From Peptococcaceae bacterium UBA5318 (GTDB lineage: Bacteria > Bacillota > Peptococcia > DRI-13 > UBA5318): DNA of 64,000 bases. The DNA lies in NCBI GenBank assembly GCA_002408285.1, contig DHRG01000013.1, positions 4,536 to 68,535 on the forward strand, given 5' to 3'. Made by a program: the position numbers and the translations under genes. The notes below the pieces were generated by a model that saw only the letters and a program-made list of their open reading frames with translations, did no database searches and was not told where the DNA came from. Position 1 is the stretch's first letter. Each line of letters starts with the position of its first letter. Shown here one piece after another: positions 6,253 through 42,300 of this stretch.

Positions 6253-7179
6253 CTATGTTGAACCGATAGAAGGCTCCAGATACCTGCCTGCTTCCGCCAG
6301 GGGATAATCATGGTACCGTGCCTGGGAGGCCAGAGCTTCCCCGTCCCCACGGTACTTTTTGCGGAACTCCGAAGGTGTGCAGTGATAGCTTAGCTTGAAG
6401 TGTTTGATCAGGTATTTCGGGTCGGAAAACCCGCTTTCCGCTGAAATTTTGGCGATCCGTTTATCCGTACACAAGAGCAGTTTGGCCGCCTGTTCACCCC
6501 TGATGTGCTGCAGCAACCCCTGGAAGGTAAGGCCGAATTTGTCCTTAATGTCATGGGACAGATGATAAAGGCTGATGCCGGCTTCTCCCGCCAGATTTTT
6601 CAACCCCGGTTTTCCGGGAGGAAACTTCAAGATATCCTGATACATTTTTCTGTTTCTTTGTACCTGTTTTTCGTCAAAGGCTTTGCGCCCGGGTCCAAAG
6701 CGCAGGTAATCAAAGCTATAGGCCATATAGGAAAGCATTTTTCCCAGACACTCCCGGACGTTTTCTTCTTGATTTTTATGGGGCTTCTCATTGAACACAC
6801 CCAGCAAAGCAGCAAGATACCCCTTCAGCCTACGGTACTTTTCCGGCGCTTGTGTTTCGTAATACGGGGAACAGCAATAGATAACTGAATATTGATGATC
6901 CCGATGCAGCCCTCTATAGAAGGCGGCATCAATTTGCAGCAACAAAAGCTTATTATCCCGGCTGCCTCTATCAATCCGGTGTATCTCCTCCGGATTGATC
7001 ACCAGGATATCCTTCTCATTCAGCAGGTGGGTTGCGGCGCCTACCCCGACAGTTGCTTGTCCCTGCAAGACATAGACGATTTCCAAGGCACTGTGCCAGT
7101 GGTAGGGATAGCTGGTCACCTCCCGGACCATTGCCCTGAGCTGTCTGTCTGGCGGAAAGGTTATTACTTCCGGACGCAT
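6253..7179 (-). CDS. AraC family transcriptional regulator (N-terminal cupin, C-terminal HTH); paralog 1
   Basis: YPYHWHSALEIVYVLQG...INPEEIHRI is the cupin part and ...LAGEAGISLYHLSHDIKDKFGLTFQGLL...IAKISAESGFSDPKYLIKHFKLSYHCTPSEFRK is the AraC HTH. Confidence 0.85.
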   Translation of the reverse strand: MRPEVITFPPDRQLRAMVREVTSYPYHWHSALEIVYVLQGQATVGVGAATHLLNEKDILVINPEEIHRIDRGSRDNKLLLLQIDAAFYRGLHRDHQYSVIYCCSPYYETQAPEKYRRLKGYLAALLGVFNEKPHKNQEENVRECLGKMLSYMAYSFDYLRFGPGRKAFDEKQVQRNRKMYQDILKFPPGKPGLKNLAGEAGISLYHLSHDIKDKFGLTFQGLLQHIRGEQAAKLLLCTDKRIAKISAESGFSDPKYLIKHFKLSYHCTPSEFRKKYRGDGEALASQARYHDYPLAEAGRYLEPSIGST

Positions 7180-7236
7180 GCCTCTCTCAACTCCTCCTTT
7201 TATCCCTTTTCATTGTATTGCCCCGGTGGAAAAGAT

Positions 7237-7253
7237 TCATTGACAATTTTGCG
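7237..7253 (+). promoter_or_regulatory. 17-nt motif TCATTGACAATTTTGCG, copy A
   Basis: An identical 17-mer also occurs at 28214-28230 and 36578-36594. All three copies lie in 5' intergenic regions of island operons. Confidence 0.5.
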
Positions 7254-7254
7254 C

Positions 7255-7341
7255 ATAAACAGAGTTCTAACCTTCAGTGGGAGTTTTAACTCCCCACTGA
7301 AGGTTAGAACTCGTTATCCAGGAACTTAGCGCCGCTTAGCT
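7255..7341 (+). repeat. Structured intergenic repeat, copy 1 (short form, 87 nt)
   Basis: ATAAACAGAGTTCTAACCTTCAGTGGGAGTTTTAACTCCCCACTGAAGGTTAGAACTCGTTATCCAGGAACTTAGCGCCGCTTAGCTATCGGATA aligns with copies at 12042-12251 and, inverted, at 28050-28182. Confidence 0.85.
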
Positions 7342-7452: not shown

Positions 7453-8358
7453 TTATCCGCTGTATTTGTCCGCCTCGGAAAGAGGATAATCCTGATACCT
7501 TGCCTGCGCAGCCAGGGCCTTGCCGTCGGCCTGATGCGCTTTGCGGAACTTGGAAGGGGTGCATCCAAAGTTTAGTTTAAAATGCTTGATCAGATATTTC
7601 GGGTCGGAAAACCCGCATTCCATGGCGATGTCCATAATGCGTCTATCGCTGCTTAAAAGCAGCTTGGCCGCACGTTCTATCCTGCTGTAATACAACAATT
7701 CCTGAAAAGTGAAGCCGAACTTGTTTTTAATATCGTGACTCAGGTGGTGCAGGCTGACCTCAATCTCCGCGGCCAGTTCTTTAAGCCCAAGAGTCCGGTC
7801 GCAATTTTTGTTCGAATACAGAGCGATTTGTTTAAGCCTTTCTACCTGCCTTTCCTCAAAGGCTACCGTTCCATATCCCCAACGCAAAAGATCAAAGTTG
7901 TAGGTAAGATAATGGAGCATGGCCGTCACAAGGTTTTCAATATTTTTATGATGCCCCGCCTGAGGTTTGGCCTTTAAGGCCTCGATCAGCCGGGCCACAT
8001 ATCCCTTTAATTTTTTATACCTGTCGGGGGCCTTGGTCTCATGGTAGCTCGAGCAGCAGTAGAGAAACAAATACCTGTCGCCCAGGAGTTTCCGGTAGAA
8101 GCCGGAGTCGATTTGCATAATCAGGATTTGATTATCCTGCCGGCTTTTGACGATGCGGTGCAGCTCATTCATGTTAATGACGGCCAGATCGTTTTCATGC
8201 AAGAGAAGTTCGTCGTTACCCAAACTGATATGGACCGACCCTTTAAAGACCTGGACAATTTCCAGGGCTTCATGCCAGTGGTAGGGATATTCCTCCACAG
8301 ACCTGACGAAGGCCCTGACCGGCAGTTTATCCACGAATTCAATTATCTCCGGGCGCAT
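7453..8358 (-). CDS. AraC family transcriptional regulator (cupin plus HTH); paralog 2
   Basis: It is collinear with the 6253..7179 product, for example MRPEIIEF...YPYHWHEALEIVQVFKG against MRPEVITF...YPYHWHSALEIVYVLQG. Both share the tail ...GFSDPKYLIKHFKL..CTPS.FRK...DG.ALA.QARY.DYPL.EA. Confidence 0.85.
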   Translation of the reverse strand: MRPEIIEFVDKLPVRAFVRSVEEYPYHWHEALEIVQVFKGSVHISLGNDELLLHENDLAVINMNELHRIVKSRQDNQILIMQIDSGFYRKLLGDRYLFLYCCSSYHETKAPDRYKKLKGYVARLIEALKAKPQAGHHKNIENLVTAMLHYLTYNFDLLRWGYGTVAFEERQVERLKQIALYSNKNCDRTLGLKELAAEIEVSLHHLSHDIKNKFGFTFQELLYYSRIERAAKLLLSSDRRIMDIAMECGFSDPKYLIKHFKLNFGCTPSKFRKAHQADGKALAAQARYQDYPLSEADKYSG

Positions 8359-8526
8359 CTCCTCACCACCACCCGGCTGCCTCGCCTAAGGCGGCGCGCA
8401 GCGGAAAAATTCAAGATTGCGACATTTTAACTGTATCTATTATAATATTATATCCTTAAAACAGGAAAAACTGAATCCGAAAATCAACCGCTCACCCTGC
8501 CAGGGAGAGGAGGGTCTTGCCCTTGG

Positions 8527-8563
8527 GACAAAAATGCCGGCCTTGACCGTGGTCAAGGCCGGC
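8527..8563 (-). terminator. Rho-independent terminator downstream of the FecR-domain gene
   Basis: The GCCGGCCTTGACC/GGTCAAGGCCGGC inverted repeat is followed on the minus strand by ATTTTTG. Confidence 0.55.
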
Positions 8564-8637
8564 ACCTTCGTTGGCAGCGGTGAAACACGCCCAAAGCGTC
8601 GACCAGTCTGTCAATGAAGTAGCGAAAGAGCCGGGCT

Positions 8638-10467
8638 TCACGTAATCGGTATAAATATAAACTCGATAAGGTCTATCGGCTCTTCTCCCGGTCCTGGTAT
8701 GACGTTTATGGTGAAGCCGTCTTCCACACTTAAAGAACTTTCCTCAGGGATGGTGATCTGAAAGGTCACTTCTCCCTGTTCGTTCGTTGTGTTTTGCAGA
8801 GGAACACATTCATGACAGTCACCAGGCTCGTAAATACTACCGTCTATTGTATAGGTATACTCAGCTTCAGGAGCGGCGGCCCAGGTTTGAATCTCCAGAT
8901 AGAATTGGTGTCCCCCGATGGGGTTGCCGTAGCGGTCCCGTGCCGTCACCGTTATTGTGCTGGTCCGGTCGGGCTCCAGCAGCGATCCGACCGCCACGCC
9001 GCACTCAACCGGCTCCAAGGGGCCGGGCAGGATCACCTGCTCTACCTGGGAGGTTTCGTAGCCCGCCGCTTCCACCAGCACCGTCAGGGTCCCGGCTTTC
9101 TGCAAGCAGAGGCGCCCCTCGCCGGGCTCTCCGGGATACAAAGTAAGGCAGCCGCCAGACCCGTCCTCCATATTCTCTAAAACATAGTCTTCATCCTCGT
9201 CAAGTTCGAGTTCGCCCGCCAACTCGCTGTGACTGACTTTGACGCCTGTAACGGACTCCACCCACGCTTCGTCATAGGCAAAAGTTATTTCCAGTACATT
9301 GCCCGCCTCGTTCTCAGTGGTGTCGGCTGTCAGCGTGGCGGCCGGCAGCAGGGCAGCAACCCACTTGGCGTAAATGGTGATGTCGGCGGTGATCAGGGTA
9401 TTGGCAAAGTCAAATTCCGTCGTAAAGGCAATATCCGTATACCAGCCGGTAAAGGTATGCCCTGCCTTGGCCGGATCGGCCGGCCGGCCGGCTTTGCCGT
9501 TATTGTTCACAAGCTGGCTGGCGACCCCGCTTCCGCCGTCTACCTCAAAGCTTACAGTGAAGACGGGGGAAGGGGGCGGGCTGTCGTCTCCGCTTCCGCT
9601 GTCGTCCGTTCCGGAGTTGTCTTGCTGCACGTTTGAATCATACTCGATCAGGGGTTCAGGGTCTTCTTCCTCCTCTTCCTCCAACTGGCCGGCTTCTTCT
9701 CTTTTTTCCTCCATGACCTCATCCAGTTGTTCCAGGAAGCCGGGGTCAAAGGAGGCGGGGTCTGTCGCCGCCAGCTCTTTGATGATCTCCAGGACAAAAA
9801 GATCCAGGGAGCGGAGGGTAACTTCCTGGATGGGCACGGCATCAGGATCGCCGATGGTCCCCTTGGTCTCGATCTGCTGCTGCTGATCCAGGAGCAGTTC
9901 CACTTCCACTTGCCGGTAGCCGCCGCCGGGTTCCGGGATGTTTACGGTGGCGGACACATAGGCGGAACCGGCCAAGACGCTGTAAACTGTCTTGTCGCCC
10001 ACCTGGGAAACGTAGATTTTGGTGCCCCGGGCGCCCATTACGGCCGTGGACGTTTTGATTTCAAACCGGGAGCCGGAGGTCAGCTTTTTCTTGAGATCGG
10101 ACCAGATGCCGCCCGCCCAGAGACTGAAGCCGGACCTCTCTTCCTCTCCATCGGCCGACTCTACCAGTTCGCTGATGAGCAGGTTGGAATTTTCGGCGAT
10201 TTTTACGACCTTTTCCGCGCCGTCTATTTCCAGTGTCAGCGTAGAATTTTTGGCTGTGATGATCCGGTCCCCCTGCACCAGGCCCATGCCTTGAAAAGCG
10301 GGAAAAACCTTTTCTCCGCCGGCTTTCATGATCTTCACTTCACCGCTGAATTCGGCGATTCGCGCTACCCGCAAGGTTTCCCCGGCGTAAACCACGGCGG
10401 CCGTGGCCAGCAGCAGGAAACCCGTGATGATTGCCGCCGCCGCATACAAGCGCCCTTTCGCAGCCAT
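8638..10467 (-). CDS. Secreted or membrane-anchored multidomain protein: FecR domain, acidic linker, Listeria-Bacteroides (Flg_new) repeat, Ig-like (Big_1-like) domain
   Basis: An N-terminal TM/signal (LYAAAAIITGFLLLATAAVVYA) is followed by a FecR-like segment (GEVKIMKAGGEKVFPAFQGMGLVQGDRIITAKNSTLTLE). After an EEEEEED linker come GHTFTGWYTDIAFTTEFDF...ITIYAKW and ITVTARDRYGNPIGGHQFYLE. I prefer the start at 10467 (GGGGG ribosome-binding site). Confidence 0.7.
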   Translation of the reverse strand: MAAKGRLYAAAAIITGFLLLATAAVVYAGETLRVARIAEFSGEVKIMKAGGEKVFPAFQGMGLVQGDRIITAKNSTLTLEIDGAEKVVKIAENSNLLISELVESADGEEERSGFSLWAGGIWSDLKKKLTSGSRFEIKTSTAVMGARGTKIYVSQVGDKTVYSVLAGSAYVSATVNIPEPGGGYRQVEVELLLDQQQQIETKGTIGDPDAVPIQEVTLRSLDLFVLEIIKELAATDPASFDPGFLEQLDEVMEEKREEAGQLEEEEEEDPEPLIEYDSNVQQDNSGTDDSGSGDDSPPPSPVFTVSFEVDGGSGVASQLVNNNGKAGRPADPAKAGHTFTGWYTDIAFTTEFDFANTLITADITIYAKWVAALLPAATLTADTTENEAGNVLEITFAYDEAWVESVTGVKVSHSELAGELELDEDEDYVLENMEDGSGGCLTLYPGEPGEGRLCLQKAGTLTVLVEAAGYETSQVEQVILPGPLEPVECGVAVGSLLEPDRTSTITVTARDRYGNPIGGHQFYLEIQTWAAAPEAEYTYTIDGSIYEPGDCHECVPLQNTTNEQGEVTFQITIPEESSLSVEDGFTINVIPGPGEEPIDLIEFIFIPIT

Positions 10468-10492
10468 CTGCCGACCCCCTTTCAATTTCAAT

Positions 10493-11992
10493 TTATTGAT
10501 CACGGCTCTTTAGGAAAACCGCCCGCTCTTGTTCCACCCATTCCACCTGAAAACCCATGCGCTCGGCCAGGTAACGCAGGGGGATCATGGAGCGGTTCTC
10601 CCTGATTGTCAGGTAGGGCGCAGCAAAAGCCTGTTCCAGGGCCCCTTTTTTCACGATAGCCTTATGTTCATGAGGCAGCCACTGCACCTGGCCGCCCAGT
10701 TTCTCGCCGAGGGCCCGGAGAGGCAGGATGACCCGCCCCTGCTCGATATAGGGTTCCGCATCGGGGAAGGGCAACAGTTCTCCGTCCAGCCATACCCGGA
10801 TCCTTTCGGCAGCGGGGGCCGGGGTTAAAAGGCGGGGGAGGTTGTAGGGATCAAGGGGCAGAGCGCGCAAACCATTGTTCCACATGTCGGAAATATAGAG
10901 AACGCCATCATGATAGAGGAGATCCACAGGACCGTTCAGCATGGACGTGGAGGTCTCCGCGGTCCGGCCGGCTCTGCCGGTGCCGGCGATGGTGATTGCC
11001 TCGCCCTGGGGCGTCAGCGCTCTGACCCTGTGGTTCCAGGTATCGGCGATAAAGATGACGCCGTTGGGCGCAAGGTCTATTCCTTTGGGGAAATTAAACC
11101 TGGCCTCGGCCCAGGCGCCGTCCCGGTAGGCCCCCGGCGCATAATCGGTCTCCTCTTCCCTTAGATCCCGGAAACCGGCCAGTGTGGAAACCTGCAGGTC
11201 TTGGATTTTTCTGACCAACTGGTTGCCGCTGTCCAACACATAAAGCGCCCCGTTTCCGGCCAGGGCAAGCCCGGCCGGTTCGTTGAACCGAGCCCCGCCG
11301 ACCGGACCGTCCCGGTAGCCTCCGTTGGGGCCCGCTTGGCCGGCCAAGGTAGATACAAGTCCTTGGGGCGTTATTTTCCGGATCACATTGTTCAGGGTGT
11401 CGGAAACATAGAGATTGTCGTGTTCATCGATGGCCAACCCAGAAGGCGCGTTGAACCGGGCCTGGTTCCCCGTGCCGTCTTGATAGCCCGGCCGGCCGTT
11501 CCCCGCAAAAGTGCTGACTCTGCCGCCGGAAATTTTGCGGATGGCGTGGTTGCCGGTATCCGCCACATAAATCGTGTTGGCGGAATCCACGACTATACCC
11601 CGGGGATTTCTGAAACGGGCCTTTTCCGCCGCTCCGTCTACATACCCGCCGGCCGGAAACCCAAAAGCGTCAAAACTGTCGGAAAAGCCGGCCACCGTGG
11701 TAACCTGGTCGCCCGCAATCTTCCTGATCCGGTTATTGTGGGAATCTGCCACGATGATCTGGTTGTCCTTGTTGGCAGTCAGGCCGTAGGGAAAGCGGAA
11801 ATCCGCTTCCAGCCTGCTTCCGTCCTGGTAGCCAAATTCCCCGGAGCCCGCATAGAAGGTGGGGACAGAGCCGGAGGCCGGAAGGGAGAAGCCCGTCAAT
11901 ACCGCGATGAGCAGGAAAAGGGCCGGCCAGATGAATCTGCCGGGGGCAGCGCGGCGGAACCGGGCCTTGGGCAAGGGCTGGGCCGATGGCAT
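10493..11992 (-). CDS. NHL-repeat beta-propeller protein with a C-terminal copper-amine-oxidase-N-terminal-like (stalk) domain
   Basis: Six repeats of the type ADSHNNRIRKI / ADTGNHAIRKI / SDTLNNVIRKI / LDSGNQLVRKI / ADTWNHRVRAL / SDMWNNGLRAL are present. The C-terminus reads ILPLRALGEKLGGQVQW...MIPLRYLAERMGFQVEW. The start is at 11992 (GGGAGG 8 nt upstream). The track start at 12043 lies inside the repeat element. Confidence 0.8.
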   Translation of the reverse strand: MPSAQPLPKARFRRAAPGRFIWPALFLLIAVLTGFSLPASGSVPTFYAGSGEFGYQDGSRLEADFRFPYGLTANKDNQIIVADSHNNRIRKIAGDQVTTVAGFSDSFDAFGFPAGGYVDGAAEKARFRNPRGIVVDSANTIYVADTGNHAIRKISGGRVSTFAGNGRPGYQDGTGNQARFNAPSGLAIDEHDNLYVSDTLNNVIRKITPQGLVSTLAGQAGPNGGYRDGPVGGARFNEPAGLALAGNGALYVLDSGNQLVRKIQDLQVSTLAGFRDLREEETDYAPGAYRDGAWAEARFNFPKGIDLAPNGVIFIADTWNHRVRALTPQGEAITIAGTGRAGRTAETSTSMLNGPVDLLYHDGVLYISDMWNNGLRALPLDPYNLPRLLTPAPAAERIRVWLDGELLPFPDAEPYIEQGRVILPLRALGEKLGGQVQWLPHEHKAIVKKGALEQAFAAPYLTIRENRSMIPLRYLAERMGFQVEWVEQERAVFLKSRDQ

Positions 11993-12041
11993 ATGGCATT
12001 CCTCCCTGAAAAATTTACCGCAAAAGCGTGATCGTCCGTTC

Positions 12042-12251
12042 ATAAACAGAGTTCTTAGCTTCAGTGGGAGTTTTAACTCCCCACTGAAGGTTAGCCGCTC
12101 TCGGACATCCGTGTCCTCCGCGGCATTAGGCCGTCCGTGGCCGTTAGAAATCGTTATCCAGGAGCTTAGCGCCGCTTATCTCCCGCTTTTGGGTTATAGC
12201 TTCCAGCTCCAGAAAGAAGTGGGAGTATTAGCGACGGTTAGCTATCGGATA
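12042..12251 (+). repeat. Structured intergenic repeat, copy 2 (long form, 210 nt)
   Basis: It shares both termini and the hairpin core with copies 1 and 3 and carries about 50 nt of extra internal GC-rich sequence. Its right end (TTAGCTATCGGATAG) supplies the last codons and the stop of the MBL gene. Confidence 0.85.
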
Positions 12252-13092
12252 GAGAAAGGATCATTCCTTCCTTGGCCGCTAAACATTGAGGGAAGCGGGC
12301 CCGAGCCAATTGTTCGATCTCATCAAGTTCCTGATCGCTTCTCCGGGGGCTGTGGTGAAATAAGATAAGCCTCCCCACGCCCGCTTGGCCGGCCAGTTTA
12401 ACAGCCTCCTGCCAGGTTGAGTGCCCCCAGCCTTTTTGAGCGGGGCGTCCCGCCTGCCCCAGATACTCCTCGTCGGTGTAGGTGGCGTCGTAGATCAGCA
12501 GGTCGCAGTCCCGGCAGAACTCCGCTAAGTTTTTATCCGTCACGGCATGATGCTCATGGTCGCCAAGATAACAGACGGAATGTCCGTTAAGCTGCAGGCG
12601 GTAAGCGGTGTTTCCCATGGGATGGTTGGTGGGGGCGGTTTTGACCGTTATTCCCCCCTCCAGGCCGAACTCCTGCCCTGCCTCTATTTCCCGGAAAACC
12701 ACCTCTGCCTTCATTTGTTCTAGTCCAATGGGGAAGAAGGGGGCCTGCATCTGCCTGGCGAAGAGTTCCGTCAGGGGAAAACCCGGTTTGCCTTCCCCAT
12801 AAACAGTGAAATGGTTCCCCCGGACAAAGGCCGGCTCAAAAAAGGGAAACCCGTGAATATGGTCCCAATGGACATGGGAAATGAGGAGATGGGCTTTTGC
12901 CGCACCGGTCCTTTCCATCCATTCTTGGCCGAGATTGCAGAGCCCTGTCCCCGCGTCAAAAATCACCTGGGTTGCTCCTGCCTGCACCTGGATGCAGGCG
13001 GTATTCCCGCCATATTTCAGGGTGTTTTTGCCGGGAACCGGTCTGGAACCCCTTACCCCCCAAAAGGTGACGGAGATTTGCACCGGGTTCAT
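12238..13092 (-). CDS. MBL-fold metallo-hydrolase (possible cyclic-nucleotide phosphodiesterase)
   Basis: The metal-binding motif HLLISHVHWDHIHGFPFF is followed by ...YLGDHEH..., ...DATYTDEEY... and ...WGHST... The phosphodiesterase role is inferred only from the adjacent cyclase gene. Confidence 0.75.
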   Translation of the reverse strand: MNPVQISVTFWGVRGSRPVPGKNTLKYGGNTACIQVQAGATQVIFDAGTGLCNLGQEWMERTGAAKAHLLISHVHWDHIHGFPFFEPAFVRGNHFTVYGEGKPGFPLTELFARQMQAPFFPIGLEQMKAEVVFREIEAGQEFGLEGGITVKTAPTNHPMGNTAYRLQLNGHSVCYLGDHEHHAVTDKNLAEFCRDCDLLIYDATYTDEEYLGQAGRPAQKGWGHSTWQEAVKLAGQAGVGRLILFHHSPRRSDQELDEIEQLARARFPQCLAAKEGMILSLSDS

Positions 13093-13187
13093 CCCTGCTC
13101 CCTCCTCGCTATAAAGTGAATCCCTATGCGGAGAGCGGTTTAAGCTCCTCCGCCTATTATTGGTTTGAGCTAATCCCGGAGCGCCGG

Positions 13188-15032
13188 TTAATCTTCGGGC
13201 AAAATTCCCTCCAACTGGTAGACGGCCAGCCGCTGGCTCTTGCCTTTCACCGTTATTTCGCCGAGGCCGCTAACTTTTACCTGTTCTTTCACCCGTTCGT
13301 AAGTGGACTGGCTTAAGAGGATTTGCCCCGGCTTGGCATTGCTTTCCAGCCTGGCGGCGGTGTTGACCGTATCGCCGATGGCCGTATAATCCATGCGGAA
13401 CTGGGCCCCGATATTGCCGACGATGGCTTCGCCCGTATTGATGCCCACGCCGAAATCAACGGTGCGGCCGTATTTTGCCAGCAGCCGCTCCTTCATCTGT
13501 GCGCTCCCTTCCTGCATGACCCAGGCCGCCTGCGCCGCTTTCAGGGCATGGTCGGGCAAGTCAAGGGGCGCGTTGAACAGGGCCATGGCGGCGTCGCCGA
13601 TAAACTTATCCAGGGTCCCGCCATAGGCAAAGATGGCCCGGGCGCAAAGGTCCAGGTATTCATTGAGGACTTCTACAACTTCTTCGGGTTCGGCCTTTTC
13701 GGAAAAAGGCGTAAAACCACGAATGTCCGCAAACAGGACGGTTATTTCCCGACGCACCCCGCCCAGCTTGAGGCCGGCTTCGCCGGAGGTCAGGATTTCC
13801 TTGACCACCTGGGGCGCCACGTAGCGTCCGAAAACCGCGGTAACACGTTTGCGTTCCAGCAATTCTTCCAGGTAGTGATAAAAGAGGCCCAGCAGATAGC
13901 AGGCAACGGCCAGCCCCACCGGGTAGAGGAGGGACAACAGCCAACCTTTTTGATAGAGCAGCCTGGCCGTTGCTCCATAGCCGAGGATCAGGGCGGCGGC
14001 CACAAAGACAGCCCGCCCCGGGCTTAATTTGCGCAAGGCCCAGATGCTGACGCCGGTAAAAAGCAGCAGGACGGCCAGGATGGACCAATAGGGCGCCTGC
14101 TGTTTAAAGTCGCGGTATAACAGGTTCTGAATAATGTTGGCATGTATTTCTACGCCAAACATGGCGGTCTGGTGGTCCAGCGGCGTGGGATAGGAATCGT
14201 GGAGGCCGACGGCATAAGGCCCCACCAGGACGATCTTGTCTTCAAAATAGGCCGGAGGGATTTCGCCGTTCAAGACCTGGTAAAAGGAGAAGCGTTCATA
14301 ATCGCCGGGTCTTCCCTGGTAATTGATATGGATCCTGTTCCAGGGATCCGTGGGCACAAGGTCCGGGGAATAAGCCTGTCCCCTTGTCTGTAAATAGGCG
14401 TTGGCGATTTTCCAGGCAAAACTGGGGATGGTTTCTTCCTGGTAATCGTAAAAAAGAACCGTCTTTCGCACCACGCTGTCGGGGTCCGGGAAGGTATTGA
14501 CGTGCCCGCTGAGGGCCTGCGCCTTAAGCAGCGGTACGGCTTCCTTCAGGTCGGCGGGCTGCAGCTTGCTTCCGGTCCGGACTGTTCCGCTGAAATAACC
14601 CACCGCGGGCAAGACGGTATTTTCGGTTTTATCCAGGGCTTGGGCCAAGGCCAGATCCTCAGCCGGCTGGGGGTCCGGTTCGGAAAACAGGATGTCGATT
14701 CCCACCGCCGCAGGTTTCCCCTGCGCCAGCTTTTCCAGAAGTTCGGCATGGGTGCTGCGCGGCCACGGCCACCTGCCCAGTTTTTCCAGGCTGGGCTCAT
14801 CGGCGGCAATAATGACGATCCGGCTGTCCACCCGGCCTTTGCCCTGATAGAGCCAGTCCTGGGCCATATTGTCCATATTCTCCCCCACATTGGCATAGGA
14901 GAGGATGGCGAAAACAAGAAAGGCGACTGCCAGCAAGAAGGATAATTTTATTTTCAAAGGGGTTCCTGCCTTTCTCCGGCAATTTAAAAAACATGTTCCC
15001 ATTATCCTACCATTTTTTTCAGGACTTTTCAT
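13188..15032 (-). CDS. CHASE2 sensor domain-containing class III adenylate/guanylate cyclase
   Basis: The order is an N-terminal TM, a periplasmic CHASE2-like region (RIVIIAADEPSLEKLGRWPWPRSTHAELL...), three TM helices, then a cyclase domain: VTVLFADIRGFTPFSEK...GGTLDKFIGDAAMALFNAP...FGVGINTGEAIVGNIG...YTAIGDTVNTAARLES. The start could be the internal ATG at 15002. Confidence 0.85.
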   Translation of the reverse strand: MKSPEKNGRIMGTCFLNCRRKAGTPLKIKLSFLLAVAFLVFAILSYANVGENMDNMAQDWLYQGKGRVDSRIVIIAADEPSLEKLGRWPWPRSTHAELLEKLAQGKPAAVGIDILFSEPDPQPAEDLALAQALDKTENTVLPAVGYFSGTVRTGSKLQPADLKEAVPLLKAQALSGHVNTFPDPDSVVRKTVLFYDYQEETIPSFAWKIANAYLQTRGQAYSPDLVPTDPWNRIHINYQGRPGDYERFSFYQVLNGEIPPAYFEDKIVLVGPYAVGLHDSYPTPLDHQTAMFGVEIHANIIQNLLYRDFKQQAPYWSILAVLLLFTGVSIWALRKLSPGRAVFVAAALILGYGATARLLYQKGWLLSLLYPVGLAVACYLLGLFYHYLEELLERKRVTAVFGRYVAPQVVKEILTSGEAGLKLGGVRREITVLFADIRGFTPFSEKAEPEEVVEVLNEYLDLCARAIFAYGGTLDKFIGDAAMALFNAPLDLPDHALKAAQAAWVMQEGSAQMKERLLAKYGRTVDFGVGINTGEAIVGNIGAQFRMDYTAIGDTVNTAARLESNAKPGQILLSQSTYERVKEQVKVSGLGEITVKGKSQRLAVYQLEGILPED

Positions 15033-15062
15033 TGACTATTTTGTTGTGTTCAAGCCATCTCT

Positions 15063-16709
15063 TTACTCCTGGTTTGGCAACCTGTATTTTTTCGGCCCAT
15101 AATGGAAGGCTTCGGTCGGGATGGCCACGCCGCAGGCTCTCAACTGCTGGGCCCGGGAAACAACGGCAGCCCCTTCCAACAGGTTGAAGGCGATTTGAGC
15201 GACGGTGCGGTTCCCTGGGTCCTCCAGGAAAGAGCCCTTGGTCCAGGCATTAAAAGCCCCCATGGCCGGCCCGCAAAAAATCTGATAATCAAGCTCCCGC
15301 CCTTTTTCTCCGGTAATGGCCCATTGGCTGGCCTTTCCCAAATACCAGCGAAACACCAGGGCCATTTTATGCCTGGGGTCCCTGGCGGCCCGCTGGAGCT
15401 GGCCGGGGTCCCTTTCTTGAAAAAAGCGGGCCGTCTCCTCCCATATTTTCTCCCAAGAGTCCCTGAACACGGTGGCCTCCACCTTCCGGCGAATATCCGC
15501 GGGTATTTGCTCCAGGGAGGAATAGCGCCGATAGAGGTCATACAACTGCGCGGCCCGGGGAGCAAACAGGGCGCCCAGCTTGAGCACCTGCACCTTGGCG
15601 CCTTGCTCGAACATATCCGCCGACGGGGCCATGGCCACGTCACTGATGTCCGCTTGGGCCAGCAGGGCTTTCCCCGCCTGGGAAAGACCGGATTCCACAG
15701 CGGCCTGATGGATCGTCCCTACCACGATATAAGCGGCGCCGTGCGCAAAGGCCGCCGCCGCCGCCGCAGGCGTGCCGATCCCGCCGGCCGCACCCACACG
15801 GATAGGACGGCGGTATGAAAAACGCCGCATGCACGCCTCCCTGGCCTGCAATACCGTGGGGAAAAGCGCCCCCAGGGGCCGATTGTCCGTATGGCCGCCG
15901 GAATCCGCTTCCACGGTAATATCTTCCGCCAGCGCGATTTGGGCAGCGCATTGGGCCTCCGCAGGGGATAGTTTGCCCTGCTCCACCAACTGCTCCAGCA
16001 GCCTGGCCGGCGGCGGGGACATAAACTGCCCGGCCAGCTCGGGCCTGGAGATTTTGGCGAAAAGGTAATGCTTCCTGTGGATGGCGCCCTGGGCATCGCG
16101 CCATAAGCCCTTGGCCGCATACCTGACCAGAGCGGGGGTGATCCCCAGGAAGGCTGAGGCCGAAAGGCGCAAGACGTTGTAATGCAGAAACAGATCAACC
16201 AGCAATTCTTCCCTTTGCGGCTCCTGGGGGGAATGGATCAGGTTGATGCCCCAGGATTTGTCCCCCGCGCCCTGTTGGATGACCTGAATAGCTCGCTCCA
16301 CCCGCGGCAGGGGCAAGCCGGCCGCGCCGAAAAAGCCCAGCAGATGGCGCCTGGCCATTTCCAGGACCATTTCTTCCGAGGCAATGCCATGGGCCATTTC
16401 ACCGCCGATATAGGGGAATTGGACCCCGTGCACCTCCTGAAAGCTGCGGTCCCCCAGCCACTCGGGATATTGGGGCGCCAATACGGCCAGCACCGGATAG
16501 CTCTGGGGAGCGGCGGACTCAGGCCGGGCAGGGGCGAAATGCCCGCCGACGGCCATGCCGACCGCTCCGCTCCCTTCGTCTCTGATCACATAGGTTTGTT
16601 GTCTGATATCCTTGAGCAGCCCGCCTGTTTCCCAGGGGAAAAAAGCCGGCTTCCTGTCGCCTTCAAGCCAAAAACCAATGGTGGGACGGCTTGTATCTGC
16701 CTGACGCAT
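15063..16709 (-). CDS. pfaD: PfaD-family trans-acting enoyl reductase (nitronate monooxygenase fold) of a PUFA-synthase-like PKS
   Basis: The product is 548 aa. It has a PfaD-like N-terminus (IGFWLEGDRKPAFFPWETGG...YVIRDEGSGAVGMAVGG) and a TIM-barrel FMN region (...GMAHGIASEEMV..., ...ITVEADSGGHTDNRP..., ...RVGAAGGIGTPAAAAAAFAHGAAYIVVGT...). Confidence 0.85.
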   Translation of the reverse strand: MRQADTSRPTIGFWLEGDRKPAFFPWETGGLLKDIRQQTYVIRDEGSGAVGMAVGGHFAPARPESAAPQSYPVLAVLAPQYPEWLGDRSFQEVHGVQFPYIGGEMAHGIASEEMVLEMARRHLLGFFGAAGLPLPRVERAIQVIQQGAGDKSWGINLIHSPQEPQREELLVDLFLHYNVLRLSASAFLGITPALVRYAAKGLWRDAQGAIHRKHYLFAKISRPELAGQFMSPPPARLLEQLVEQGKLSPAEAQCAAQIALAEDITVEADSGGHTDNRPLGALFPTVLQAREACMRRFSYRRPIRVGAAGGIGTPAAAAAAFAHGAAYIVVGTIHQAAVESGLSQAGKALLAQADISDVAMAPSADMFEQGAKVQVLKLGALFAPRAAQLYDLYRRYSSLEQIPADIRRKVEATVFRDSWEKIWEETARFFQERDPGQLQRAARDPRHKMALVFRWYLGKASQWAITGEKGRELDYQIFCGPAMGAFNAWTKGSFLEDPGNRTVAQIAFNLLEGAAVVSRAQQLRACGVAIPTEAFHYGPKKYRLPNQE

Positions 16710-17052
16710 CGCTTATCGTTCCTTTCTGAAAATCCCGGTAATCCCGGTGCCAGTCCAGGAAGCAAAAGGGCTTCATTTCACCCTTGACCACCAAGGCGGC
16801 CAGGAAATCCTTCCCGACCAGCCAAGACGCCCTCTCCCCCCGGTGCTCCGGTTCATTTTCCCAATAAATAACCCTCCCTTTCAGCAAGAGGATGCGGTAG
16901 GCCGCAGCCCTTTCCTGTTCCCGCTCATCCAAAATCTCTTCCCAGGGTTCGCCGGGTTCACTAACCTGGTCCAAATTCGCCGACCACAGATGGATGGCCC
17001 GCTCCAGCCCCTTGGCGTCAATCCTTCCCTTGCTCTGTACTTCTTTACTCAC
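16663..17052 (-). CDS. Hypothetical 129-aa protein with faint resemblance to the N-terminal half of an Sfp-type phosphopantetheinyl transferase
   Basis: IHLWSANLDQVSEPGEPWEEILDEREQERAAAYR recalls the vhvW...L...E..Ra..f opening of Sfp/PfaE PPTases. It is only about half the length of one. It overlaps the pfaD start by 47 nt. Confidence 0.3.
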   Translation of the reverse strand: MSKEVQSKGRIDAKGLERAIHLWSANLDQVSEPGEPWEEILDEREQERAAAYRILLLKGRVIYWENEPEHRGERASWLVGKDFLAALVVKGEMKPFCFLDWHRDYRDFQKGTISDASGRYKPSHHWFLA

Positions 17053-36515: not shown

Positions 36516-36577
36516 AACCTGCCCTAAAGATGGAATTTTTCACATTGCCTTTATTTTATTTTCTTTGCCCCAAAATT

Positions 36578-36594
36578 TCATTGACAATTTTGCG
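36578..36594 (+). promoter_or_regulatory. 17-nt motif TCATTGACAATTTTGCG, copy C
   Basis: It lies about 63 nt upstream of the PKS gene start, on the opposite strand. Confidence 0.5.
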
Positions 36595-37113: not shown

Positions 37114-37475
37114 CTTTCCTCCTCAGATATTTTTTGATTTTTTCATACTTTCCATTGGATTCAAGTTTAATTTTAATCGCTCGATAATAGAGTTAAGCCT
37201 TTTTTCTCTTCCTTCCCCGGTCTTTGCGCCAGTATGTGATCATATAGCGCGTCCATATTGGAGGGTTGTAGAAAAACAACCTAACCTACAACATCAAAAT
37301 AATAAGCCCCCACATAGGCGCAGGGCTTCGTTAGCTAGGAGATTATTTGGTGAGGAGGCGTATCTCACATCTCTTTATAGACCGCTTGACGCGGTAGCGG
37401 CAGCTGCCTGTTCTGCCCTCAAATAACCCCCTTTGGCTAGCTTATTCATTTGTACGTCTTCAATAGGTAACCAAC

Positions 37476-38894: not shown

Positions 38895-38984
38895 TGGCGG
38901 AGGGGGTGGGATTCGAACCCACGGAACCCGCAAGGATCCAACGGTTTTCAAGACCGCCTCCTTCAACCGCTCGGACACCCCTCC
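38895..38984 (-). tRNA. tRNA-Ser (anticodon UGA), with encoded CCA
   Basis: The minus strand reads GGAGGGGTGTCCGAGCGGTTGAAGGAGGCGGTCTTGAAAACCGTTGGATCCTTGCGGGTTCCGTGGGTTCGAATCCCACCCCCTCCGCCA. It has a 7-bp acceptor stem, a CT-TGA-AA anticodon loop, a long variable arm and GGTTCGAATCC in the T-loop. Confidence 0.9.
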
Positions 38985-42045: not shown

Positions 42046-42300
42046 GGAAAAAACAAAACTCCCGTCCCTAACCTTTAAGGTTAGGGACGGGAGTTATTCC
42101 CGCGTTGCCACCCATATTGGCCTTTGACAGACCCGCTCATTCATGCATAACGGACATGACCGTCAGGTTTTTCCTGACGCTCCGGGGCGGAATTCAACAA
42201 AGCGCCCGTTGGTTTGCACCACCCACCAACTCTCTGACACAGTTCTTTGTTTACTTTTCCCCTTCATAGCTTTTTAAGTATGACTTTGCTTTTTTAAGTA
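42046..42300 (-). ncRNA. T-box riboswitch leader (probable Ser specifier) controlling serA-serS
   Basis: The minus strand carries a Stem I AG-bulge (CAGAGAG), a distal hairpin GTTGGTgggtggtgcaaACCAAC and the specifier region TTGAATTCCGCC. The T-box sequence is AATATGGGTGGCAACGCGGG. The terminator is CTCCCGTCCCTAACC-ttaaa-GGTTAGGGACGGGAG followed by TTTTGTTTTTT. Confidence 0.8.

Follow-up and report, generated by a model that had tools for sequence, protein, structure and literature searches.

The question raised by this locus, a window of 64,000 nucleotides (nt) from contig DHRG01000013.1 of Peptococcaceae bacterium UBA5318, is what four signalling and surface-protein genes are doing directly behind the last gene of a lipid-synthesis operon. 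Open reading frame (ORF) and domain calls bear out the preliminary description of four co-oriented minus-strand genes directly downstream of pfaD; they encode a CHASE2 receptor cyclase, a metallo-beta-lactamase (MBL)-fold hydrolase, an NHL-propeller protein and a FecR-domain surface protein (Table 1). With moderate confidence, the set is read here as a self-contained cyclic AMP (cAMP) signalling operon of a type that occurs across Bacillota, probably co-regulated with lipid synthesis in this genome, for which an ATP-binding cassette (ABC) exporter encoded among the lipid genes is the nearest plausible receiver.

The cyclase matches the Pfam family CHASE2 (PF05226, residues 37-328) with 223 bits and Guanylate_cyc with 105 bits. 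Four hydrophobic segments (residues 22-51, 313-336, 341-360 and 363-386) place the CHASE2 domain between the first transmembrane segment and a C-terminal transmembrane bundle, giving a topology of one membrane span, an extracytoplasmic CHASE2 domain, three further spans and a cytoplasmic class IIIb catalytic domain. The metal-binding residues D411 and D455, the substrate-specifying K451 and T525 and the transition-state residues N532 and R536 (P0004 numbering) are invariant among 29 orthologues, and D411, D455, N532 and R536 align with cyclases of known structure in the PDB. In class III cyclases, Lys combined with Thr or Asp specifies ATP, and Glu combined with Gly, Cys or Ser specifies GTP. 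The window cyclase (ldKfiGD and mdyTaiGD) has the Lys and Thr of the adenylate cyclases CyaB (3r5g) and CyaC (1wc1), whereas the guanylate cyclase Cya2 (2w01) has Glu and Gly at these columns. Since the Lys/Thr pair matches adenylate cyclases, cAMP is the expected product.

Translation of the cyclase likely begins at the TTG at 14957, inside the longest ORF, because orthologues begin with an MKxK... consensus and the public gene call is 589 amino acids (aa) long. The gap to pfaD, previously given as 30 nt, has that length for the longest ORF only and is 105 nt from this start. Thousands of full-length homologues, at about 50-56% identity, exist in Clostridia, Paenibacillus, Aneurinibacillus, Natranaerofaba and other Bacillota; a genome-contig scan with the cyclase alone returned a single distant cyclase-domain match from Deltaproteobacteria. 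To our knowledge, no ligand of a CHASE2 domain has been defined.

The MBL-fold protein, whose HVHWDH motif lies at residues 73-78 and which had been proposed as a plausible cyclic nucleotide (cNMP) phosphodiesterase, keeps that standing. It matches Lactamase_B_2 (PF12706) with 81 bits and has no transmembrane segment, consistent with a cytoplasmic enzyme. Residues 72-78, SHVHWDH, fit the signature [T/S]HXHXDH of the atypical class-II phosphodiesterases YhfI, Rv1339 and Corynebacterium glutamicum CpdA (PMC9293780), and neither this signature nor any metal ligand varies among 30 homologues. The top Foldseek match of an AlphaFold (AF2) model (pLDDT 88.8) is Bacillus subtilis YhfI (6KNS; E 3e-15, TM-scores 0.70/0.82), an enzyme reported to prefer cAMP and cGMP (PMC9117128). 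RNase Z and BA1088 come next, and yeast PDE1 and Apyc1 stand lower, the latter at ranks 44-45. A lipid-hydrolase reading was considered and is unlikely, as the top 50 structural neighbours are phosphodiesterases for nucleotides or RNA.

The likeness to YhfI, Mycobacterium tuberculosis Rv1339 and C. glutamicum CpdA (PMC9293780, PMC9117128) lies in the fold, the signature and a kinship with RNase Z. Unlike these enzymes, the window protein is only about 20-22% identical to YhfI, has an invariant N-terminal FWGVRGS motif specific to its own family, and has a phosphodiesterase role that is predicted. Scores below the cut-offs of all curated RNase Z, PhnP and cyclic-nucleotide phosphodiesterase models indicate a separate family on the same branch. 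The case against the assignment includes a score of 44 bits, against a cut-off of 400, with the model for cyclic nucleotide-degrading phosphodiesterases (NF041851), and one orthologue that stands beside pilus genes with no cyclase nearby. The latter would also suit an RNase Z- or PhnP-like enzyme with RNA 3' ends, 2',3'-cyclic phosphates or some other phosphodiester as its substrate. By sequence the RNase Z models are indeed the best matches (TIGR02651, 84 bits; PDB 1y44, E 1e-11 to 3e-16), and homologues carry the JGI label phosphoribosyl 1,2-cyclic phosphodiesterase. However, 84 bits is far below the TIGR02651 cut-off of 293, as are the scores with the other RNase Z and PhnP models below theirs; the RNase Z arm region is reduced to 23 residues from 63 in B. 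subtilis RNase Z, about 40 fewer; YhfI is the top structural match; and the gene repeatedly adjoins cyclases and, in 18 of 19 loci with both, a GAF-HD gene. An RNase Z- or PhnP-like activity is therefore quite improbable, and the protein is best regarded as a candidate cAMP phosphodiesterase of the YhfI/Rv1339 atypical class-II kind. A make-and-break pair of cyclase and MBL enzyme is well supported by sequence, structure prediction and gene context.

The surroundings of related cyclases were surveyed in two sets of loci, the annotated neighbourhoods of seven orthologues and 80 metagenome loci fetched with the alignment of 29 orthologues. Scoring by tblastn and by iterated hidden Markov models (HMMs) built from the window domains gave 86 non-redundant loci, forming 57 clusters at 70% identity. 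Within 6 kb of the CHASE2 cyclase, a FecR domain occurs in 48 of the 86 loci, a GAF-HD (HD-GYP-like) protein in 40, an NHL propeller in 24, the MBL family of the window in 20 (20-22 for MBL orthologues next to the cyclase) and a cNMP-binding protein in 12. The adjacency of FecR-domain and CHASE2 genes, suggested in the preliminary description for other phyla and published for them, thus extends to Bacillota: where at least 5 kb is available on both sides, 25 of 27 loci have a FecR gene within 6 kb. In 48 of 49 loci the FecR gene points the same way as the cyclase gene, the median distance between the two being 32 nt, and nine of ten randomly chosen FecR calls scored above the Pfam gathering threshold. 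Gene order differs among loci while the set recurs, and the same triad appears in precomputed annotations of Petroclostridium, Natranaerofaba, Aneurinibacillus, Paenibacillus and metagenome-assembled genomes (MAGs) of Clostridia. Over the full length, identity is 46% between the window MBL and the MBL whose module contains the closest cyclase orthologue.

Nineteen loci have both an MBL and a GAF-HD gene, side by side in 18 of them, and the window belongs to a minority with MBL only. The idea that the MBL enzyme replaces the GAF-HD enzyme was rejected on these counts. The MBL gene is paired with a GAF + HD_5 gene in loci L007, L012, L036, L045, L048, L049, L061, L066-L068, L072, L081, L082, L087, L089 and L095, and in some GAF + HD_5 copies the GYP motif is changed to GYC. 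The cNMP-binding effectors beside the module vary: they include a Crp-like regulator, a cyclic-nucleotide-binding (CNB)-Rce1-like protease, and fusions of a CNB domain with a periplasmic binding protein and with a Na/sulfate symporter (locus L009, 8600-9283 and 15118-19095; locus L010, 7357-9975). The sensor module seems to be an input that can move between genomes and be connected to different outputs.

Comparable clusters have been published. In Campylobacterota, CHASE2 cyclase genes are grouped with genes for a cAMP phosphodiesterase, a FecR-domain protein and a tetratricopeptide repeat (TPR) protein, and the authors suggest a single pathway made up of all four genes and spread of the cluster by horizontal gene transfer (PMC9239204, mBio 2022). 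Common to the window and that cluster are a CHASE2 receptor cyclase, an enzyme predicted to degrade cAMP, an extracytoplasmic protein with a FecR domain and an additional repeat protein. The fourth gene differs, being NHL plus Cu_amine_oxidN1 in the window, where no TPR match was found with Pfam, and the FecR protein of the window belongs to a Gram-positive surface and has Ig-like repeats, unlike the outer-membrane protein of Campylobacterota. In Sinorhizobium meliloti, which has the CHASE2 cyclases CyaD1, CyaD2 and CyaK, the neighbours of cyaD1 are clr, smc02178 and smc02177, the last encoding a FecR-domain protein (PMC5498481). There too, a CHASE2 adenylate cyclase adjoins a FecR-domain extracytoplasmic protein and a cAMP receiver, and cAMP from receptor cyclases controls envelope and surface functions. 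The receiver in S. meliloti is, however, the Crp-type transcription factor Clr, as opposed to the CNB-ABC exporter proposed here; its FecR protein is a Clr target, and the locus as described contains no MBL phosphodiesterase or NHL gene. The BiofilmReg operon of Burkholderia contaminans encodes a response regulator, a LysM-FecR protein and a CHASE2 histidine kinase, and the signal detected by CHASE2 domains was described there as unknown (PMC5192318). It has in common with the window a periplasmic FecR-domain protein adjoining a CHASE2 sensor, an arrangement conserved across Beta- and Gammaproteobacteria, but its output is a histidine kinase with a response regulator, its FecR partner carries LysM and it has no phosphodiesterase. 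Given the published clusters of CHASE2 cyclase, FecR protein and phosphodiesterase, the window module is a Bacillota variant of a known module; no description of a Bacillota module with an NHL/Cu_amine_oxidN1 partner was found in the literature.

The two remaining proteins are predicted to act outside the membrane. The NHL protein (NHL, 124.8 bits; Cu_amine_oxidN1, 64 bits) has a signal-peptide-like N-terminus and likely starts at 11992, behind the Shine-Dalgarno sequence GGGAGGA. The FecR protein (FecR, 40.6 bits; Flg_new, the Listeria-Bacteroides repeat, 66 bits; Shr-like_HID, 46 bits) likely starts at the ATG at 10467 (M13), preceded by AAGGGGG, and has one hydrophobic segment at residues 18-43, a signal anchor or signal peptide. 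Signal-peptide- or anchor-like N-termini in the absence of other transmembrane segments indicate that both are extracytoplasmic. The NHL + Cu_amine_oxidN1 architecture also adjoins CHASE2 cyclases in loci L003, L005, L007, L009 and L010. The layout of FecI/FecR/FecA-type anti-sigma systems is not found: only a signal anchor precedes the FecR domain, and no gene with sigma-70 regions 2 or 4 occurs among the scanned neighbours.

The suggestion that the NHL and FecR proteins are the extracytoplasmic partners of the CHASE2 sensor is supported as far as linkage goes, and the proteins could serve either input or output. A co-sensor role is not established, because the FecR-domain neighbour of CyaD1 in S. 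meliloti is a cAMP-dependent target that is dispensable for signal perception (PMC5498481), a precedent that calls for caution in placing the FecR protein on the input side. Both proteins might instead be outputs, that is, surface proteins under cAMP control like SMc02177. The smc02177 gene is activated via Clr and cAMP, and its mutant phenocopies the cyclase mutant while still perceiving the signal; in addition, Bacillota FecR proteins have large, variable, adhesin-like extensions (RCC1, cadherin-like, CARDB and Flg_new). However, FecR and cyclase genes are tightly coupled in operons in 25 of the 27 well-flanked loci whatever the effector, often with overlapping stop and start codons, which is more typical of subunits of one machine. 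Cell-surface outputs are thus somewhat unlikely, and a role of the two proteins in the CHASE2 pathway, most likely in capturing or presenting its signal, is preferred.

The first clear terminator after the FecR gene lies where it had been noted: a 20-bp GC-rich stem (GCCGGCCTTGACC/GGTCAAGGCCGGC) is followed by U5, with a minimum free energy of -35.8 kcal/mol. Folding also agrees that the pfaD-cyclase gap contains no terminator-like hairpin (minimum free energy just -15.5 kcal/mol). This gap has a GC content of 38%, compared with 58% for the island around it. A sigma-70 consensus scan found no minus-strand promoter in the gap, although the same scan also missed the true terminator and is uninformative both ways. 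The gap does contain a promoter-like element, one of exactly four matches in the window, all on the minus strand, to CAAAATnGTCAATGA-N19-TAnnAT, which has no match in 100 shuffles. The four copies lie 32-216 nt upstream of start codons, namely those of the polyketide synthase (PKS) operon, the CdsA-to-pfaD operon, the cyclase and an AraC-family gene. The copy of the CdsA operon is conserved in Pelotomaculum terephthalicicum JT (locus L091, 9867-9881), with the same 19-nt spacing and TAAAAT.

These motif matches suggest that the cyclase has a promoter to itself, akin to the other promoters of the island. Two features weaken this interpretation: the element has no canonical -35 hexamer, and of the four copies that of the cyclase, whose -10 reads TAGGAT, diverges most. 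The missing -35 implies an activator or an alternative sigma factor; the neighbouring AraC-family paralogues are candidate regulators of the motif. Inspection by eye gave no convincing fit to sigma-E, -G or -H or to a Crp-type palindrome. These paralogues (6253-7179 and 7453-8358) have an intermediate GC content at third codon positions (GC3) of 0.60.

The preliminary description had the cyclase possibly read through from the lipid operon. If most transcripts of the cyclase and MBL genes came from the CdsA-to-pfaD operon as its distal part, cAMP capacity would scale with transcription of the lipid genes. Some read-through may occur because no terminator follows pfaD: the genes are co-oriented, the 105-nt gap is free of terminator-like structure and a strong terminator is first met behind the FecR gene. 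As the main mode it is nonetheless unlikely, because the AT-rich gap holds an element with the fixed 19-nt spacing seen in three other promoter regions, and because the module must be transcribed alone in every other genome. The two modes are compatible, but co-regulation via a common promoter is better supported than read-through.

The gap of about 245 nt between the MBL and NHL genes is occupied by a copy of a repeat resembling a miniature inverted-repeat transposable element (MITE). The repeat contains two inverted repeats, one of which forms a perfect 31-nt hairpin, CTTCAGTGGGGAGTTAAAACTCCCACTGAAG, that lacks a U-tract. The element is present three times in the window, at 7272-7302 (minus strand), 12059-12089 (minus) and 28135-28165 (plus), against none expected, and alignment of the gaps shows a common element of about 120-190 nt around each hairpin. 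Besides the MBL-NHL copy, one copy separates the AraC genes and another separates CdsA from the ABC gene; all three are oriented like the gene downstream. The orthologous CdsA-ABC spacer of Pelotomaculum has no repeat, so the window copies are (recent) insertions. Rfam has no match in 8300-15200, at the gathering threshold or at E up to 1, so that the structured MBL-NHL gap corresponds to no known riboswitch or leader. Were the insertion absent, the spacing of the four genes would be tight.

Table 1. Features of the four-gene module and of related elements in the 64-kb window (positions count from its first nucleotide)
Feature	Position	Strand	Basis
Promoter-like element upstream of AraC-family gene 6253-7179	7212-7251	-	motif match; AraC domains by Pfam
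Intrinsic terminator ending the four-gene set	8527-8564	-	hairpin + U5
FecR-domain surface protein (FecR + Flg_new + Shr-like HID, Ig-like tail)	8638-10503	-	ORF + Pfam
NHL x4 + C-terminal Cu_amine_oxidN1 protein, predicted secreted	10493-12043	-	ORF + Pfam
MITE-like repeat copy filling the MBL-NHL gap	12041-12237	-	perfect 31-nt hairpin 12059-12089
MBL-fold hydrolase (Lactamase_B_2), candidate cAMP phosphodiesterase	12238-13092	-	ORF + Pfam
CHASE2 + Guanylate_cyc receptor cyclase	13188-15032 (longest ORF)	-	ORF + Pfam
Promoter-like element in the pfaD-cyclase gap (CAAAATAGTCAATGA, 19 nt, TAGGAT)	15004-15043	-	motif match
pfaD-family enoyl reductase, final gene of the lipid operon	15063-16709	-	TIGR02814, 617 bits (cut-off 449)
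Promoter-like element upstream of the CdsA-to-pfaD operon	28189-28228	-	motif match
ABCB-type exporter with C-terminal CNB domain	28341-30515	+	ABC_membrane, ABC_tran, cNMP_binding (85 bits)
Promoter-like element upstream of the KS-AT-ACP / KR-DH operon	36553-36592	-	motif match

The operon is located within a foreign, horizontally acquired island of 28 kb (about 8.4-36.5 kb), which has 55-60% GC compared with about 45% in its flanks. Module and lipid genes form one compositional unit: GC3 is 0.68-0.70 (about 0.69) in both and 0.47 in core genes, and the correlation of pooled relative synonymous codon usage is r=0.96 for module and island but 0.54 for module and core genes. The lipid part (15063-36515) encodes, in order, KS-AT-ACP, KR-DH, the ABCB-type exporter (on the plus strand), CdsA, a fused 1419-aa PlsA-like protein of plasmalogen-synthase type (BcrAD_BadFG + DUF2229), a B12-radical SAM enzyme, a CDP-alcohol phosphatidyltransferase (Pss), Psd, DH-AGPAT and PfaD. 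This combination of a pfa-like PKS (KS-AT-ACP, KR-DH, PfaD, DH-AGPAT) with CdsA, Pss, Psd and the PlsA-like and B12-radical SAM proteins suggests a dedicated ether or plasmalogen-type phosphatidylethanolamine lipid as the product. Between DH-AGPAT and pfaD, a 129-aa ORF (16663-17052, minus strand) overlaps with the start of pfaD; the public assembly calls it as a gene, and it has no Pfam match.

The lipid island is syntenic in P. terephthalicicum JT, with 72-89% protein identity, ABC and CNB parts included, on contig JAKNBL010000030.1, read to position 13,845 and as far as the DH-acyltransferase gene; the PlsA-like and ABC-CNB genes are each called there as two ORFs. The cNMP-binding ABC exporter of the preliminary description accordingly holds up as integral to the lipid island of another genome as well, with 84-89% identity there. 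Its CNB domain has a canonical phosphate-binding cassette, FGEIALLRNIPRTATV (FGE...PRTA), and is the sole CNB HMM match in the window. CNB-ABC homologues in Sporomusa and in another MAG stand in unrelated contexts.

Joined together, these elements outline a possible mechanism. The membrane receptor cyclase, sensing through its extracytoplasmic CHASE2 domain, would make cAMP, and the cytoplasmic MBL enzyme would degrade it. The exported NHL/Cu_amine_oxidN1 and FecR/Ig-like proteins may act outside the membrane in the same pathway. The promoter-like element of the operon would be a diverged copy of that upstream of both lipid operons and the AraC-family gene, and since the motif is common to the lipid operons, the module is probably co-regulated with lipid synthesis. 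The cAMP would be received by the CNB-domain exporter of the island, so that lipid export could come under cAMP control. In its fullest form, the whole 28-kb island would be a sense-synthesise-export circuit in which cAMP directly gates the exporter of the PKS-derived ether or plasmalogen-type phospholipid and all units are run from one promoter motif; so complete a circuit is doubtful.

The coupling to lipid export is a hypothesis about this genome alone, strengthened by the motif and the codon usage and weakened by non-conservation. The pfaD-module neighbourhood is not shared by other genomes: pfaD is found within 6 kb, or 10 kb, of the cyclase in none of the 86 other loci. Likewise, the best non-self matches among 5.8 billion proteins are 56% identical for the cyclase and 53% for the MBL enzyme, and no close orthologue of either comes from the Pelotomaculum island that is otherwise 72-89% identical. 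These two results count against the link to lipids; they are evidence that the lipid island did not originally include the module, and, with the JT contig read as far as the DH-acyltransferase gene, it is not an integral member in the manner of the pfa-type genes. They would fit an incidental juxtaposition, in which an autonomous CHASE2 cAMP system landed, or was carried, beside lipid genes while its receivers are elsewhere in the genome and it has no lipid role. That the module pairs in other loci with CNB effectors as different as a Crp-like transcription factor, a CNB-Rce1-like protein and a CNB-transporter is in keeping with this, as are the Pelotomaculum island, which keeps its CNB-ABC exporter without a closely related cyclase, and the unrelated contexts of the Sporomusa and MAG homologues. 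Nevertheless, module and both lipid operons have a promoter-like motif in common, their codon usage is indistinguishable and the exporter has the only CNB domain in 64 kb, and mere juxtaposition is possible but not the expected case.

An anti-phage function of the Pycsar kind, with an infection-triggered cyclic nucleotide, a CNB effector and an Apyc1-like MBL regulator, is extremely improbable. PADLOC models for PycC match the cyclase catalytic domain (104 bits) and those for PycTIR the exporter CNB domain, but these matches amount to generic domain homology, the former equalling the Pfam Guanylate_cyc score, and the other three module proteins have no PADLOC match. A precomputed Pfam match of the MBL enzyme to Apyc1 (PF23023) is marked weak, though unmarked for some orthologues, and a profile search against the PDB reached Apyc1 with E 1e-3; the current Pfam scan, by comparison, gives no Apyc1 match even at E up to 10. 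The adenylate cyclase-type Lys/Thr pair, the extracytoplasmic CHASE2 sensor and the secreted partners also argue against a Pycsar system.

The island is an insertion that lies about 15 kb away from the dnaA/dnaN/recF/gyrB/gyrA origin region, in a genome of about 45% GC. The right flank of the window is this replication-origin region (serS, serA, ackA, gyrA, gyrB, recF, dnaN and dnaA), and the sign of the GC skew switches near 50-52 kb. The core flank just beyond the island contains, all on the minus strand, a skipping-rope RNA (37342-37427), a tRNA (38898-38984) and a T-box leader (42080-42276) upstream of serA.

The role of cAMP is obscure in most Gram-positive anaerobes. The kind of module formed by a CHASE2 cyclase, a FecR protein and a phosphodiesterase is already known but experimentally almost untouched, and the Bacillota form with an NHL partner is a variant of it. 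In Bacillota, the CHASE2 adenylate cyclase is almost always accompanied by a FecR-domain surface protein and often by an NHL protein, an MBL or HD-GYP-like phosphodiesterase and a local cNMP-binding effector; these recurring partners are concrete proteins for studying ligand capture and cyclase control. In UBA5318, the candidate effector is an ABC exporter inside a lipid-synthesis island, which makes second-messenger control of membrane-lipid export addressable. If the full circuit were true, the exporter would be the first ligand-gated lipid exporter under a bacterial second messenger, and cAMP would have a defined role in Clostridia-type Bacillota.

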